64,000 nucleotides of DNA, taken from the NCBI RefSeq assembly GCF_055900595.2, contig NZ_CM148325.1. One strand, 5' to 3'. Under the pieces are notes generated by a model. The model had not been told where the DNA came from and did not search any database. It worked only from the letters and a program-made list of their open reading frames with translations. Below, one piece after another: positions 7,133 through 53,278 of the stretch (position 1 is its first letter; every line of letters begins with the position of its first letter). The translations under genes and the position numbers were made by a program.

Positions 7133-7160
7133 GGGGCGTGATTATCATGCCCCTTTTTTT
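7133..7160 (+). terminator. Hairpin plus T7 run abutting the stop of the convergent rhomboid-propeller ORF
   Basis: ggggcgtgat / atcatgcccc imperfect stem followed by ttttttt; the T-run overlaps the TAA stop (reverse strand) of ORF 7159..9096. Confidence 0.45.
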
Positions 7161-9096
7161 ACGGTTCAGGGATACAAGCCACATCGCCATATTGGGGATG
7201 CCGAATAATTGCCTGCGGATCAAGCGAGCGCGTCCTGTCCATTTGGATTAACCCGTTCTTCGCCATAACAAATATCTTTCTACCATCCGCTGAAAAACGA
7301 AGATGATTAACGTAGCTGGCAGGATAAACGCCAATAATCTGCCCGGCATTAATATTGAGCAGGATGACATAACCTTGCAGGCCATATGACACCAACGCTA
7401 AATACTGACCGTCCGGGCTAATACCCTCAACAGAATAAACGCTCCTGCTACACCATTGCGTCATAATGCTGGCTTGTTGATCCCCTGTGCTTATACCTGA
7501 AATCCCCTGACTATCGGCAAAAATAACCTCACCATTTTTTGGTCGGAATCCCATCGCAGAAACGACACCACGCGCATCACCTGCGGGAAAATCTTCTTTC
7601 TGATGCGTGATGGTATTGATCCGCACGATGTTACCTCTGCCTGCTCCCGGAACCAGTAATGTTTTTTCATCCGGGGAAAGTGCCATAACCCAGGCGCCTG
7701 GTTTACCGCTCGTCCCCGTCCCGTCGTATTTCTCCAGTGGGATATCCGCCACATGCTGATAAGTCACCAGATCAATCGCTGACACACTATTACTGGTGCG
7801 ATTCATCACCCAGGCTTTTGTGCCATCACGCGAGAGGATAAGGCTGTCAGGATGGGCGCCGGTGGTAATCGACTGAATAATCTCCCCCGTCGCCACGTTA
7901 ATGACCGATACTGCATTCGCTTCAAATGAAGTCGCATACAGCAACTTTTCATCGGGGCTTAACACCAGCGATCTGACGCCCTGATCTTTACAGCCACCAC
8001 AATGTTTGACTGACTTTTCTTTCGCTATGGGCGCTGTAAAGGTATGCAGGATTTTCTTTTGTCCGAGGTCGAAAACAACAATACTGTTCGTGTTTTCAAT
8101 TGCGGCATAAAACGTATTACCATCCCGACTGATCGCCATATCATGGATATCGGCAATCTCAGCGAGCAAATCACCACTGGCCTGTTCACGACTTACCGGA
8201 GCGGGTAATGTTTCCCTGAGGGCGTTGCGTTCCTCCGCTAACTGCTGCTTTTTATGCCGTCGCTCTTGTTCAATCTCCTGCGGATAAAACTCTTCACGCA
8301 GGCTTTGCCTGACCTGCAAAACTGATTCATCAATCTGCTGCTGCACAAGCCAGATAGCCCCGGTCAGTAGAAGACTACCCGCAACAATAATCCCGCCTTC
8401 CGTAACAAGTCGGTTTTGCCCAGATAAACGCGCACTCAGCCAACCCAACGCGCCCCCCGCAATCAGGCCGCCAATGTGGCAAGCGTTATCTATTCCTGTT
8501 TGCCGGGTACCATACAACAGTGTCAGCGCCACCATACCCAACAGAGAAAATACTCGCCGCTGGTTTTTATGGTGTGTACCCGCACCTGAAGAAAGCTGTG
8601 TTGCTATCGCAGCGCCAGCTATTCCCATAATTGCCCCGGATGCCCCAACGCTGATGACTATCTGCTCACTTTCGCGTAACGCATAACAGGCGCTGATGAG
8701 CCCACCAAAGATGCCGGAGAATAACCAGATAATCAGGAGTCGCCATTTCCCCAGTATCCGTTCCGCCACTGTCCCCACCACCAGGAGTGCAAACATATTC
8801 ATCAGCAAATGGGAAAAACTACTGTGCAGAAAAACACTGCTCAATAAGCGCCAGGGTTCACCCGACAACGTGAGAGAGGCAACGTTAGCGCCGAGATGGA
8901 TGAGTGCGGATTGATCGACTTCTTCATAACTCATCCATTGTGCGAGGTAACAAAATATCCCAACACATAGCGCAAAAAGGATCAGGGTTATTGCGGGTAA
9001 TTGAACATTTAACGGCTTAACCGAAGATGCAGACATAAGGTGATTCTTCCTTGAAAAGACAGGTAAAAAAGCATTTTTCCCGTGTGCAGTTATCAT
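7159..9096 (-). CDS. Rhomboid-family intramembrane serine protease fused to a C-terminal beta-propeller-like domain (YVTN/lactonase-type repeats); uncharacterised
   Basis: 645-aa ORF. Rhomboid signatures seen directly: WRLLSSVFLHSSFSHLLMNM, catalytic-Ser motif GASGAIMG, catalytic-His motif HIGGLIAGG, about 7 hydrophobic segments. C-terminal ~330 aa carry repeated S(P/R)DG...hydrophobic-strand units (SRDGNTFYAA, SPDEKLLYAT, SRDGTKAWVM, SPDEKTLLVP, SPDGQYLALV, SADGRKIFVM). Alternative start at the ATG at 9036 (625 aa) has a better SD (aggaag). Confidence 0.8.
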   Translation of the reverse strand: MITAHGKNAFLPVFSRKNHLMSASSVKPLNVQLPAITLILFALCVGIFCYLAQWMSYEEVDQSALIHLGANVASLTLSGEPWRLLSSVFLHSSFSHLLMNMFALLVVGTVAERILGKWRLLIIWLFSGIFGGLISACYALRESEQIVISVGASGAIMGIAGAAIATQLSSGAGTHHKNQRRVFSLLGMVALTLLYGTRQTGIDNACHIGGLIAGGALGWLSARLSGQNRLVTEGGIIVAGSLLLTGAIWLVQQQIDESVLQVRQSLREEFYPQEIEQERRHKKQQLAEERNALRETLPAPVSREQASGDLLAEIADIHDMAISRDGNTFYAAIENTNSIVVFDLGQKKILHTFTAPIAKEKSVKHCGGCKDQGVRSLVLSPDEKLLYATSFEANAVSVINVATGEIIQSITTGAHPDSLILSRDGTKAWVMNRTSNSVSAIDLVTYQHVADIPLEKYDGTGTSGKPGAWVMALSPDEKTLLVPGAGRGNIVRINTITHQKEDFPAGDARGVVSAMGFRPKNGEVIFADSQGISGISTGDQQASIMTQWCSRSVYSVEGISPDGQYLALVSYGLQGYVILLNINAGQIIGVYPASYVNHLRFSADGRKIFVMAKNGLIQMDRTRSLDPQAIIRHPQYGDVACIPEP

Positions 9097-9390
9097 CCCG
9101 GCAAACGTCCCATACCGAAAAGTTAACTCTGTCCGAAATATGACTTTTTCAGCCTGAAATTACAATCGTAATTAATTCATCCCTAAGTATTTTTTGGCAT
9201 GTAAGTTGCTTTATTTACTGTGTAAGCAATGAAATCAGCCGCAACGCAACCGGGTTGCACCAACACAAATCAGCGGTAGCACCAAAAAGGTGCGGTTTAA
9301 GAATTTTGCTTCGGAATGGTGCGGCGCATCTCGCAAAAACAAACAATAAAACATCAATATCTTTACATTTAGCCAAACTAAATGTTACCT

Positions 9391-9448
9391 AACAAACACA
9401 ACACTGCACAATAAAGTTGCAGATGATAACAACACAAACACTCACAAC
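9391..9448 (+). promoter_or_regulatory. C/A-rich elements in the gltI 5' leader (candidate GcvB sRNA target site)
   Basis: aacaaacacaacactgcacaa (9391..9411) and aacaacacaaacactcacaac (9428..9448), 44-100 nt upstream of the gltI ATG; gltI is a known GcvB target through a C/A-rich leader element in Salmonella/E. coli. Confidence 0.5.
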
Positions 9449-9491
9449 GGGTATCCATGCGTTCTTAACGCAGAAGATAAAGGAGTTGGAT

Positions 9492-10400
9492 ATGCAATTA
9501 CGTAAACCTGCCACAGCAATCCTGGCCCTGGCGCTTTCCGCAGGACTGGCACAGGCAGATGACGCCGCCCCGGCAGCGGGCAGTACGCTGGACAAAATCG
9601 CCAAAAACGGTGTGATTGTCGTCGGTCACCGTGAATCTTCAGTACCTTTCTCTTATTACGACAATCAGCAAAAAGTGGTGGGTTACTCGCAGGATTACTC
9701 CAACGCCATTGTTGAAGCAGTGAAAAAGAAACTCAACAAACCGGACTTGCAGGTGAAACTGATTCCGATCACCTCACAAAACCGTATTCCTCTGCTGCAA
9801 AACGGCACTTTCGATTTTGAATGTGGTTCTACCACCAACAACGTCGAACGCCAAAAACAGGCGGCTTTCTCTGACACTATTTTCGTGGTCGGTACGCGCC
9901 TGCTGACCAAAAAGGGCGGCGATATCAAAGATTTTGCCGACCTGAAAGGCAAAGCCGTAGTCGTTACTTCCGGCACTACCTCTGAAGTTTTGCTCAACAA
10001 ACTGAATGAAGAGCAAAAAATGAATATGCGCATCATCAGCGCCAAAGATCACGGTGACTCTTTCCGCACCCTGGAAAGCGGTCGTGCCGTTGCCTTTATG
10101 ATGGATGACGCTCTGTTAGCCGGTGAGCGAGCGAAAGCGAAGAAACCAGACAACTGGGAAATCGTCGGCAAGCCGCAGTCTCAGGAAGCCTACGGTTGCA
10201 TGTTGCGTAAAGACGATCCGCAGTTCAAAAAGCTGATGGATGACACTATCGCTCAGGTGCAGACCTCCGGTGAAGCGGAAAAATGGTTTGATAAGTGGTT
10301 CAAAAATCCAATTCCGCCGAAAAACCTGAACATGAATTTCGAACTGTCGGACGAAATGAAAGCACTGTTCAAAGAACCGAATGACAAGGCACTGAACTAA
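9492..10400 (+). CDS. gltI: Glutamate/aspartate ABC transporter periplasmic binding protein
   Basis: 302 aa from the ATG at 9492 (SD aggag at 9481..9485); signal peptide MQLRKPATAILALALSAGLAQA; the ORF-track start at 9417 is an upstream in-frame extension. Confidence 0.9.
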   Translation: MQLRKPATAILALALSAGLAQADDAAPAAGSTLDKIAKNGVIVVGHRESSVPFSYYDNQQKVVGYSQDYSNAIVEAVKKKLNKPDLQVKLIPITSQNRIPLLQNGTFDFECGSTTNNVERQKQAAFSDTIFVVGTRLLTKKGGDIKDFADLKGKAVVVTSGTTSEVLLNKLNEEQKMNMRIISAKDHGDSFRTLESGRAVAFMMDDALLAGERAKAKKPDNWEIVGKPQSQEAYGCMLRKDDPQFKKLMDDTIAQVQTSGEAEKWFDKWFKNPIPPKNLNMNFELSDEMKALFKEPNDKALN

Positions 10401-10556
10401 TTACAAGAACCAGGGGCGGAAATTCCAGCCCTCTCGATTGTTACGTAGCACGGACAGACTATACGCCTGATGGTCGTTCCCCATCGGGCCTGAAAACCGC
10501 AATACGCTGGGTAACAATCTTCGAGGGTAGCAGTTAACGCTGCTACCCTCTTTTTT
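10401..10556 (+). ncRNA. sroC: SroC-like sRNA processed from the gltI-gltJ intergenic region
   Basis: Intergenic segment immediately 3' of gltI ending in a strong Rho-independent terminator (gagggtagcagttaacgctgctaccctc + tttttt at 10523..10556); position matches the known origin of SroC in the gltIJKL mRNA. The 5' end is not determinable from sequence. Confidence 0.5.
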
Positions 10557-10569
10557 CTGGAGTAGATTT

Positions 10570-11310
10570 ATGTCTATAGACTGGAACTGGGGTATTTTTT
10601 TACAACAAGCCCCGTTCGGCAACACCACCTATCTTGGTTGGATCTGGAGTGGTTTTCAGGTGACGATCGCTTTGTCGATCTGCGCCTGGATTATCGCTTT
10701 CCTTGTCGGTTCATTTTTCGGCATTTTACGTACCGTTCCAAACCGTTTTCTCTCCGGTCTGGGTACGTTGTATGTCGAACTGTTCCGCAACGTGCCGTTG
10801 ATTGTGCAATTCTTTACCTGGTATCTGGTTATCCCTGAACTGTTGCCGGAAAAAATCGGCATGTGGTTTAAGGCAGAACTAGACCCAAATATTCAGTTTT
10901 TCCTCTCCTCCATGCTCTGTCTGGGACTGTTTACTGCAGCTCGTGTTTGCGAACAAGTACGCGCCGCGATTCAGTCGTTGCCGCGTGGGCAAAAGAATGC
11001 CGCGCTGGCAATGGGTCTGACGCTACCGCAGGCTTACCGCTACGTACTGTTGCCTAACGCTTATCGCGTTATCGTCCCGCCAATGACCTCTGAGATGATG
11101 AACCTGGTAAAAAACTCCGCCATCGCCTCGACCATCGGTCTGGTGGATATGGCGGCGCAGGCCGGTAAATTGCTCGATTACTCGGCCCACGCCTGGGAGT
11201 CATTTACCGCCATTACGCTGGCGTATGTGTTGATTAACGCTTTTATCATGCTGGTGATGACGCTGGTTGAACGTAAAGTTCGCCTGCCCGGCAACATGGG
11301 GGGCAAATAA
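10570..11310 (+). CDS. gltJ: Glutamate/aspartate ABC transporter permease
   Basis: 246 aa polytopic membrane protein; synteny gltIJKL. Confidence 0.9.
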
Positions 11311-11983
11311 TGTACGAGTTTGACTGGAGTTCCATTGTTCCTTCCCTGCCATATCTGCTCGACGGGCTGGTGATCACCCTGAAAATCACCATCACGGCGG
11401 TGGTCATTGGTATTTTGTGGGGTACGATGCTGGCAGTAATGCGCTTGTCCAGCTTTGCGCCGATTGCCTGGTTTGCCAAAGCCTACGTTAACGTATTCCG
11501 CTCGATTCCTTTAGTCATGGTTTTGCTGTGGTTTTACCTGATTGTGCCGGGTTTTCTGCAAAACGTGCTGGGATTATCGCCAAAAAATGATATCCGTTTA
11601 ATTTCGGCGATGGTGGCGTTTTCGATGTTTGAAGCGGCCTACTATTCAGAGATTATCCGTGCCGGTATTCAAAGTATTTCCCGTGGGCAGTCGAGCGCCG
11701 CGCTGGCGTTGGGGATGACTCACTGGCAGTCGATGAAACTGATTATTCTGCCGCAGGCGTTCCGCGCTATGGTGCCGCTGCTGCTCACTCAGGGCATCGT
11801 ACTGTTCCAGGATACCTCACTGGTGTATGTGTTATCTCTGGCCGATTTCTTCCGTACCGCCTCAACCATTGGTGAGCGTGATGGTACACAGGTCGAAATG
11901 ATTCTGTTTGCCGGGTTTGTTTATTTCGTTATTAGCCTTAGCGCATCGTTGTTGGTCAGCTACTTGAAAAGAAGGACAGCATA

Positions 11984-11984
<1 letters not shown>
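11310..11984 (+). CDS. gltK: Glutamate/aspartate ABC transporter permease
   Basis: 224 aa; start overlaps the gltJ stop by 1 nt; ABC permease. Confidence 0.9.
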
Positions 11985-12709
<725 letters not shown>

Positions 12710-12826
12710 TCACTCTGGCGCGCATACCCAAGTGCGCGCCATCTCACGCTTTCTCGTTTCGGCCCTCGTATCTGTTACATCCTGGCGTTACCCTTGTCGC
12801 AAAGAAGCACACAACAAGGAGCAACA

Positions 12827-13762
12827 ATGGCACTGCCAATTCTGTTAGATTGCGATCCAGGTCATGACGACGCTATCGCAATAGTTCTCGCCCTCGCCTC
12901 ACCAGAGCTTGATGTCAAAGCAATTACGTCTTCCGCCGGAAACCAGACACCAGAAAAAACCTTACGCAATGTTCTGCGTATGCTGACCTTGCTTAATCGC
13001 ACCGATATTCCGGTAGCAGGCGGCGCGGTAAAACCATTAATGCGTGATTTGATTATCGCGGACAATGTGCACGGCGAAAGCGGTCTCGACGGCCCTGCAT
13101 TACCGGAACCGACGTTCGCACCGCAAAACTGTACGGCGGTGGAGTTGATGGCGAAAACGCTGCGTGAAAGTGCGGAACCTGTCACGATTGTTTCTACCGG
13201 ACCGCAAACTAACGTTGCCTTGCTGCTCAATAGCCACCCGGAACTGCATAGCAAAATCGCCCGAATCGTGATTATGGGCGGCGCAATGGGGATTGGTAAC
13301 TGGACGCCAGCCGCCGAGTTTAATATTTATGTTGACCCGGAAGCGGCAGAAATTGTCTTCCAGTCAGGGATCCCGGTGGTGATGGCCGGTCTGGATGTTA
13401 CTCACAAAGCGCAAATTTACGTTGAGGACACCGAGCGTTTCCGCGCGATTGGCAACCCTGTTTCAACCATTGTTGCCGAACTGCTGGATTTCTTCCTCGA
13501 ATATCATAAAGACGAAAAATGGGGCTTTGTTGGCGCACCGCTGCATGACCCATGCACCATCGCCTGGCTGTTGAAACCAGAGTTGTTTACCACTGTTGAG
13601 CGCTGGGTTGGCGTGGAAACACAAGGGAAATATACCCAGGGTATGACGGTTGTTGATTATTATTATCTGACCGGCAATAAACCGAATGCTACTGTAATGG
13701 TCGATGTTGATCGTCAGGGCTTTGTTGATTTACTGGCTGATCGTCTGAAATTTTACGCTTAA
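12827..13762 (+). CDS. rihA: Pyrimidine-specific ribonucleoside hydrolase
   Basis: 311 aa from the ATG at 12827 (SD aagga); nucleoside hydrolase motif [17 protein letters not shown]. Confidence 0.9.
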
Positions 13763-39694: not shown

Positions 39695-39726
39695 CAAAAA
39701 AAACCCGCTGATTAAGCGGGTTTTGA
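39695..39726. terminator. Bidirectional intrinsic terminator between convergent crcB and cspE
   Basis: aaaaaaaa-cccgctgattaagcggg-tttt hairpin with flanking A/T runs. Confidence 0.8.
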
Positions 39727-39743
39727 ATTCTTGCTGACGTATC

Positions 39744-39953
39744 TTACAGAGCGATTACGTTTGCAGCAGAAGGGCCTTTGGCACCGTTAGTGATTTCGAA
39801 CTCTACGCGCTGACCTTCAGCAAGAGTTTTAAAACCATTAGTCTGGATTGCAGAGAAGTGTACGAACACGTCTTTGCTGCCGTCTTCCGGAGTAATGAAA
39901 CCGAATCCTTTGGACTCATTAAACCACTTAACGTTACCTTTAATCTTAGACAT
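39744..39953 (-). CDS. cspE: Cold-shock-domain protein CspE
   Basis: 69 aa from the ATG at 39953: [20 protein letters not shown] with RNP1/RNP2 motifs; the ORF track extends further upstream. Confidence 0.95.
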
Positions 39954-40127
39954 CAAAATTACCTTTACATGAAAAATAGACACAAATGCTGTGTCGGTTA
40001 CCAGTACACCAATTGTGGTACGCTTTGTCCAGTGCAACTTTACTAAAAAGTGATAAAAGTCGCGTTATTTTTGATGTTAATTATTTTAGTCATTGATTTT
40101 AAAGAAGTTACTAAAATTTCATTTGTC

Positions 40128-53049: not shown

Positions 53050-53196
53050 TCCTCTGATTTACAAAAGACGCTAATTCGTCTTCCATAAACTATGACGATT
53101 AAGATTTATACATAATGCGCTGCATTGAGGAATTCCCTGAATGTGACGCAAATCACTTCAAAGAGTGAGCAACAGTCAGTATCATCATGTGAGTTA

Positions 53197-53230
53197 AACC
53201 CTCGCCGCCTGACGGTGAGGGTTTTCTTTT
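53197..53230 (+). terminator. Candidate intrinsic terminator between rna and rnk
   Basis: aaccctcgccgcc / ggtgagggtt stem followed by ttttctttt. Confidence 0.5.
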
Positions 53231-53278
53231 GGGTATGTTTATCTGCGACACTCGCAGTACCGACGACATGGAGTAAAA

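Follow-up and report, generated by a model that had tools for sequence, protein, structure and literature searches.

The gltI-gltJ spacer of an Escherichia coli genome is the locus of sroC, the known small-RNA sponge of GcvB

The window, by which we mean the whole 64,000-nt stretch of DNA that was analysed, carries the genes gltI, gltJ, gltK and gltL on its plus strand. The gltI gene is found at 9492..10400 (+); it matches the family NF008063 along the full length of the model (668.5 bits, positions 1-302 of 302) and is annotated at the same position in E. coli K-12 MG1655 and in strain 120899. The permease and ATPase genes gltJ, gltK and gltL follow at 10570..12709 (+), as open reading frames at 10570-11310, 11310-11984 and 11984-12709, assigned by family matches and by annotation. 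GltK is matched by NF011687 with 479 bits, and an ABC ATPase occupies the gltL position, followed by RihA. The permease in the gltJ position (10570-11310) scores below every equivalog cutoff; gltJ is annotated at the identical position in two genomes. The gene order around the spacer is the same in the MG1655 and strain 120899 annotations. As the TAA stop codon of gltI lies at 10398-10400 and the ATG of gltJ at 10570, the spacer covers 10401-10569 and is 169 nt long, which is the length given in the preliminary description of this DNA.

The window strain departs from K-12 only in the region upstream of gltI. In MG1655 the insertion sequence IS5D (insH3) lies between lnt and gltI, whereas the window lacks IS5D and has a rhomboid-domain open reading frame instead, so that it must stem from an E. 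coli other than K-12. This 645-aa reading frame (7159-9096, minus strand) combines an N-terminal rhomboid protease domain with C-terminal beta-propeller repeats, and its annotation in strain 120899 is 'rhomboid family intramembrane serine protease'.

The identity of the spacer RNA was determined by a covariance-model scan of the whole 64-kb window against Rfam 15 at gathering thresholds, and by comparison with annotated genomes. The sroC family (RF00369) is found at 10396-10558 (+) with 174.8 bits against a gathering threshold of 45 (E = 7.4e-37), and the match is not truncated, i.e. it spans model positions 1-163 of 163. The region is identical to K-12 MG1655 in 201 of 201 nucleotides, which include the gene b4763 and its flanks. 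In the MG1655 reference annotation b4763 is the ncRNA sroC, 'small regulatory RNA SroC', 163 nt long, at 686681-686843 on the minus strand, and it overlaps the last 5 nt of gltI. The preliminary description had recognised the spacer as SroC, and two of the three checks that it named, an alignment to the annotated gene and an Rfam covariance-model search, bear this out; the third, a discrete transcript, is answered by the published species of about 160 nt (PMC4474525). Its placement of the RNA in the spacer also stands, but the start has to be moved from 10401 to 10396, i.e. the RNA begins inside gltI and includes the gltI stop codon. The 3' end lies at about 10556-10558, within the U-tract. 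We thus place the 163-nt SroC RNA at 10396..10558 (+), on the grounds of the Rfam match, the identity to MG1655 and the fold described below.

The locus is present in practically all complete genomes of the species. A 201-nt query around the spacer matched 5421 of the 5426 complete E. coli genomes; the median copy number is one, 5372 records are at least 99% identical to the query, and the locus always lies between gltI and gltJ. Hence sroC is a single-copy core-genome locus in E. coli. We also considered, and rejected, that the spacer is a REP or some other repeat or mobile element of intergenic DNA, in view of the median of one copy per genome. The PGAP annotation of strain 120899 lists only two CDSs at the sroC position; the missing sroC entry is a difference between annotation pipelines and not a biological one.

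Two further RNA elements were detected elsewhere in the window by the same scan. The rnk leader (RF01771) has a full-length match at 53125-53233 (+), with 124.9 bits against a gathering threshold of 50. The cspA thermoregulator model (RF01766) matches at 39696-40054 (-) with 123 bits against a threshold of 78, and this region comprises a gene of the cold-shock family together with its 5' UTR. The 5' part of this second match aligns poorly, and the gene, instead of being cspA, may be one of its paralogues, e.g. cspE.

The 163-nt RNA folds much more stably than would be expected from its composition. The minimum free energy (MFE) is -66.3 kcal/mol as compared to -40.5 +/- 4.0 kcal/mol for dinucleotide shuffles (z = -6.5), and none of the 200 shuffles was as good. 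The fold consists of three elements. The first is a 5' stem-loop, SL1 (SroC nt 18-37, 10413..10432, +). The second is a long central stem-loop, SL2 (SroC nt 41-124, 10436..10519, +), which is present in the MFE structure, is supported by covariation and holds both GcvB sites. The third is the terminator hairpin (SroC nt 128-155).

The Rho-independent terminator is located at 10523..10556 (+), with the stem at 10523-10550 and the T6 tract at 10551-10556. Its sequence is GAGGGTAGCAG-TTAACG-CTGCTACCCTC, the two arms occupying 10523-10533 and 10540-10550, followed by TTTTTT. The preliminary description had spoken of a near-perfect hairpin plus T6; in fact the stem is perfect, with 11 Watson-Crick pairs and an additional closing U-G pair. 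The terminator scan recorded 12 pairs, 7 of them G-C, and a 4-nt loop, which makes it the longest-stemmed terminator-like site within 9000-13000. The same hairpin is described in the literature as a conserved, leaky Rho-independent terminator (PMC4474525). The terminator at 10523-10556 forms the 3' end both of SroC and of a monocistronic gltI mRNA, and is leaky toward gltJKL. A scan of the plus strand between 9000 and 13000 found no sigma-70-like promoter, which is consistent with an RNA that arises by processing and not as a primary transcript.

Homologues were collected by one DNA-pattern scan of a species-representative genome set, the pattern being placed inside the conserved core. The scan returned 97 matching stretches; 58 of these carry an SroC homologue and the remainder are chance matches in unrelated phyla. 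The homologues come from Escherichia, Salmonella, Citrobacter, Klebsiella/Raoultella, Enterobacter and Kluyvera, and further from Kosakonia, Siccibacter, Pluralibacter, Intestinirhabdus, Superficieibacter and Huaxiibacter. Note that the invariance of the columns AGCACGGAC and ACTATA is circular, as these were fixed by the construction of the search pattern.

The MFE structure of the window RNA was then compared with an alignment of 55 of these sequences (72% mean column identity). The structure leaves 88.9% of the cells paired, as opposed to 38-55% when the pairing partners are slid by 1-3 columns, and the covariation score is 0.203 as opposed to at most 0.069 for the slid controls. None of 500 shuffles reached the observed percentage of paired cells, the number of cells changed on both sides or the covariation score. 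SL1 is paired in 86.8% of the cells and has 2 compensatory pairs, the basal helix of SL2 has 6 compensatory pairs, and the terminator is paired in 99% of the cells. The apical helix of SL2 (10465-10473 with 10481-10489) is 97.2% paired, and 6 of its 9 pairs are compensatory. When no structure was given, RNAalifold recovered this apical helix, i.e. the stem that presents the first GcvB site, with its 6 compensatory pairs, and also the terminator.

There are differences between the genera. The Salmonella SroC has substitutions in SL1 and in the stems of SL2 with respect to the window, and these are largely compensatory. Another example of variability is an insertion of 6-9 nt in the terminator loop (10534-10541 in the window, columns 155-165 of the alignment), which occurs in Escherichia and Kluyvera (13 of the 55 sequences). 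It extends the stem to 12 pairs, as compared to 9 pairs in Salmonella, Citrobacter, Klebsiella and Enterobacter. With the longer stem the efficiency of termination could differ from genus to genus, and with it the amount of SroC relative to gltJKL. In Siccibacter colletis (L016:3480-3740, minus strand) and S. turicensis (L051:11866-12130, plus strand) there is an insertion of about 100 nt between SL2 and the terminator; the terminator AATCTTCGAGGGTAGCGCTGCTACCCTC is retained just before the gltJ ATG, and the first GcvB site carries one change (CCGTTCC). The possibility that the Siccibacter homologues are truncated, like those of Yersinia, was rejected on account of this insertion and the retained terminator. 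The insertion predicts an SroC variant of about 260 nt in this genus.

SroC is known as a sponge of GcvB derived from the 3' UTR of gltI (Miyakoshi, Chao and Vogel 2015, PMC4474525). Two GcvB-binding sites have been mapped in it, 7 and 8 nt long and separated by 14 nt, one at the tip of SL2 and the other in an internal bulge; on the GcvB side the contacts are in SL1 (protections at G14 and G18) and in the region around G156 (PMC4474525). We searched for blocks of exact complementarity between SroC of the window and the MG1655 gcvB sequence. RNAduplex runs with full-length SroC, or with the gltI leader, against the whole of GcvB were dropped since they force whole-molecule pairing and are uninformative. 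The first site, BS1, is UCGUUCC (SroC nt 79-85, 10474..10480, +), an exact 7-nt complement to GcvB nt 13-19 in SL1. The second, BS2, is GGACAGAC (SroC nt 57-64, 10452..10459, +), which forms an exact 8-nt Watson-Crick block with GcvB nt 156-163 in the R3/SL4 region. The gap between BS2 and BS1 is 14 nt, so that the published site lengths, the spacing and the GcvB partner positions are all matched in the window.

The position of the two sites in the fold agrees with the published picture as well. In the MFE structure the 7-nt loop at the apex of SL2 coincides exactly with BS1, and this loop is carried by the best-covarying helix. Cross-species pairing is weak in the helices that overlap BS2 (64% for helix 4), which fits an accessible bulge. 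Of 57 distinct homologues, which come from at least 12 genera, 55 retain the 14-nt spacing and BS1, a site absent from the search pattern, and all homologues have AG at the two positions left free inside BS2.

The complementarity between SroC and GcvB is, taken alone, statistically weak and only marginally above chance. There are 6 complementary 7-mer words where 1.9 are expected (p ~0.04) and 2 complementary 8-mers where 0.49 are expected (p ~0.11). Equally long complement blocks that do not correspond to published sites are found in stems (SroC 101-108 with GcvB 189-196, and SroC 146-152 with GcvB 114-120). The case for BS1 and BS2 therefore rests on their match to the experimentally mapped sites. 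Both of these are intact in the window and their function is published (PMC4474525), which supports the preliminary reading of the RNA as a sponge of GcvB.

A candidate GcvB site had also been proposed in the 5' leader of gltI. We cut GcvB to its G/U-rich R1 segment (nt 63-91) and scanned it against 12,792 windows of 40 nt on both strands of the 64-kb window. A C/A-rich element at 9417..9449 (+) is the predicted target of the R1 seed; it gives the best duplex in the window (-33.0 kcal/mol, rank 1 of 12,792; mean -14.2, sd 4.2), even though it is not a clear outlier, the next values being -32.3 and -31.5 kcal/mol. Its core AACAACACAAACACTCACAAC lies at 9428-9448, i.e. at -64 to -44 from the ATG at 9492, and the whole element extends from -75 to -43. 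The position of the C/A-rich core is conserved across genera as judged from the aligned block, the position relative to the ATG in the individual species being unreliable. The proposed site is thus borne out as a conserved element with the best R1 duplex, and a verified GcvB site upstream of the RBS (ribosome-binding site) in the gltI leader is known from the literature. A simple composition filter (at least 22 C/A in 24 nt) caught only an A-rich stretch at 9334 and not the element at 9417-9449, and was dropped.

Another C/A-rich stretch, CAAACACAACA, is found in the leader at 9393-9403 (+), and all 11 nt of it can form Watson-Crick pairs with GcvB nt 79-89. Lying about 25 nt upstream of the main element, it could offer R1 an additional or alternative contact. 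Deletion of the leader C/A site has little effect on GcvB depletion (PMC4474525); the leader is therefore the repressed arm and does not belong to the sponge.

Taken together, the present analysis shows the identity and anatomy of SroC and the covariation of its structure, and it shows that both pairing sites and the leader element are present and conserved. We consider it nearly certain (about 97%) that the spacer between gltI and gltJ is the sroC locus of E. coli, whose RNA is a processed fragment of the gltI mRNA that pairs with GcvB and depletes it.

The processing, the Hfq dependence, the decay of GcvB and the physiological effect are transferred to this locus from the literature. A single glt promoter gives rise to a full-length gltIJKL mRNA and to a monocistronic gltI mRNA (PMC4474525). 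SroC has a 5' monophosphate and no transcription start site of its own; RNase E excises it from gltI transcripts that have terminated prematurely, its 5' end lies within gltI, and the maturation requires RNase E, 5'-P sensing and Hfq (PMC4474525). A stable species of about 160 nt is seen in E. coli, Salmonella and Klebsiella (PMC4474525). In the window, transcription from the gltI promoter would mostly end at the strong but leaky terminator at 10523-10556 and yield the monocistronic gltI mRNA, and a minority of transcripts would pass into gltJKL, which would be expressed only by this read-through. RNase E, acting in a 5'-end-dependent and Hfq-guided manner, would then trim the gltI mRNA to the stable 163-nt SroC (10396-10558).

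Together with Hfq, SroC would pair with two distant parts of GcvB, the BS1 loop with SL1 and the BS2 bulge with R3/SL4, and this pairing would license GcvB's breakdown by RNase E. Deletion of sroC increases GcvB's half-life from 1.7 to more than 15 min, i.e. SroC triggers decay by RNase E and does not merely sequester GcvB (PMC4474525). Loss of GcvB would de-repress its regulon of amino-acid and peptide transport and metabolism genes, e.g. opp and dpp, and would also de-repress gltI itself through the C/A-rich R1 target upstream of its RBS. When SroC pairing is lost, OppA and GltI reporters go down in a GcvB-dependent manner and growth on peptides is slower (PMC4474525). The mechanistic experiments were mostly done in Salmonella, and the evidence from E. 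coli consists of a two-plasmid test, in which the E. coli homologues of SroC and GcvB work equally well (PMC4474525), and of interactome data. In E. coli RIL-seq the GcvB-SroC chimeras rise to about 70% of the GcvB reads in stationary phase (PMC9299463), and the pair was recovered again by TRIC-seq (10.1101/2025.09.11.675593). Other reported partners of SroC are MgrR, which is sponged, and fliE and flhBAE, which are repressed.

The regulatory circuit had been described in advance as a feed-forward loop encoded within one operon, and this statement holds in part. The loop itself is published, and 'feed-forward loop' is the term used by the primary paper (PMC4474525), while a later review speaks of positive feedback. 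It is not contained in one operon, since its central node, gcvB, is encoded elsewhere: the Rfam scan of the 64-kb window gave no match to the GcvB family, and in K-12 gcvB is at 2.94 Mb as compared to 0.69 Mb for the sroC locus.

It is possible to ask whether the terminator has a regulatory role besides the sponge. One could imagine a terminator/anti-terminator switch, controlled by a ligand, a protein or a small RNA, that tunes the release of SroC versus read-through into gltJKL; the same possibility was raised by the authors of PMC4474525. In such a switch CCCUC at SroC nt 34-38 would compete with the 3' arm of the terminator for GAGGG at nt 128-132. CCCUC is identical to the terminator 3' arm and is able to pair with the 5' arm. 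Moreover, two regions outside BS1 and BS2 are invariant or nearly so among the 55 homologues, namely CCCUCUCGAUUG, i.e. the CCCTCTCGATTG region (SroC nt 34-45, 10429-10440), and AUCUUCGAGGGUAG, i.e. the ATCTTCGAGGGTAG region (SroC nt 122-135, 10517-10530). As long as the 3' arm has not been transcribed, the alternative pairing lies only 1.6 to 3.6 kcal/mol above the MFE of the nascent RNA, and in that MFE structure G128-G130 are already paired with the base of SL2. At full length, however, the forced anti-terminator is 9.2 kcal/mol above the MFE and the pair probability of the terminator is about 0.9999. Since the columns concerned show no variation, covariation can speak neither for nor against the switch, and their invariance could equally reflect recognition by Hfq or RNase E, or pairing with MgrR, fliE and flhBAE. 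In addition, apart from sroC, the Rfam scan gave no riboswitch or leader family at the locus. We regard such a switch as unlikely.

Still less probable, and in our judgement very improbable, is that the spacer is only an intra-operon attenuator that sets the dosage of GltI above that of GltJKL, the 160-nt RNA being an inert by-product of decay. The terminator is placed where differential expression of an ABC-transporter operon would be set, it is invariant across genera, and, leaky as it is, it yields the monocistronic gltI mRNA (PMC4474525). For attenuation, however, the hairpin alone would suffice, yet about 125 nt upstream of it are conserved; compensatory changes occur in SL2, and the 7-nt loop that is complementary to GcvB is invariant. 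GcvB, OppA and growth on peptides all change when sroC alone is deleted or its binding sites carry point mutations, whereas deletion of gltJKL has no effect (PMC4474525). As the sole explanation attenuation is thus already refuted by the published base-pairing mutants; the two roles coexist and attenuation is a partial description only.

Finally, that the spacer encodes a small protein, be it from a short plus-strand reading frame or from the 75-aa GTG-start frame on the minus strand (10401-10628) that spans the spacer in the list of reading frames, was rejected as having a negligible probability, as there are many indels between the homologues whose length is not divisible by three and which break the frame (gaps of 1, 2, 6/7 and 9 nt), the substitutions are compensatory in RNA stems instead of following codons, MG1655 and strain 120899 have no CDS annotated there, and the minus-strand frame runs antisense into the start of gltJ.

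Returning to SroC as the GcvB sponge, we can compare the locus with known systems. The E. coli K-12 SroC has the same sequence (100% identity), length, gltI-gltJ position, 5' end inside gltI and terminator; it also has the same secondary structure as published, with BS1 and BS2 at 14-nt spacing, and nothing is different at the locus. In a broader sense SroC belongs with SdhX, OppZ, NarS, the chbBC spacer sponge of ChiX, 3'ETS-leuZ and AgvB, the class to which we compared it. Like other small RNAs and sponges that RNase E processes from 3' UTRs or from within operons, SroC is cut from a longer transcript and shares the terminator of its host mRNA. The members of this class are Hfq-associated and act by short base pairing, and some of them sponge other small RNAs, as SroC does. 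There are two differences. Firstly, the terminator of SroC lies inside the operon, in contrast to the class where it lies at the operon end. Secondly, SroC triggers the decay of its target small RNA via two separated sites, whereas AgvB, another antagonist of GcvB, blocks GcvB without destabilising it.

The sroC gene is already known, being an annotated gene with a published mechanism, and there is no new feature at the locus. The K-12 gene has been annotated since the early 2000s, and the mechanism was published in 2015. SroC itself reportedly goes back to Vogel et al. in 2003. The locus shows that a processed small RNA, its terminator and its regulatory logic are recognisable from raw sequence alone, and the first call made in this way was correct. 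If termination between gltI and gltJ were indeed regulated, some factor or condition would decide how much SroC is released relative to read-through into gltJKL, and in this way the level of GcvB. Regulated termination would in this case add an input to the control of GcvB, which governs one of the largest small-RNA regulons of the enterobacteria.
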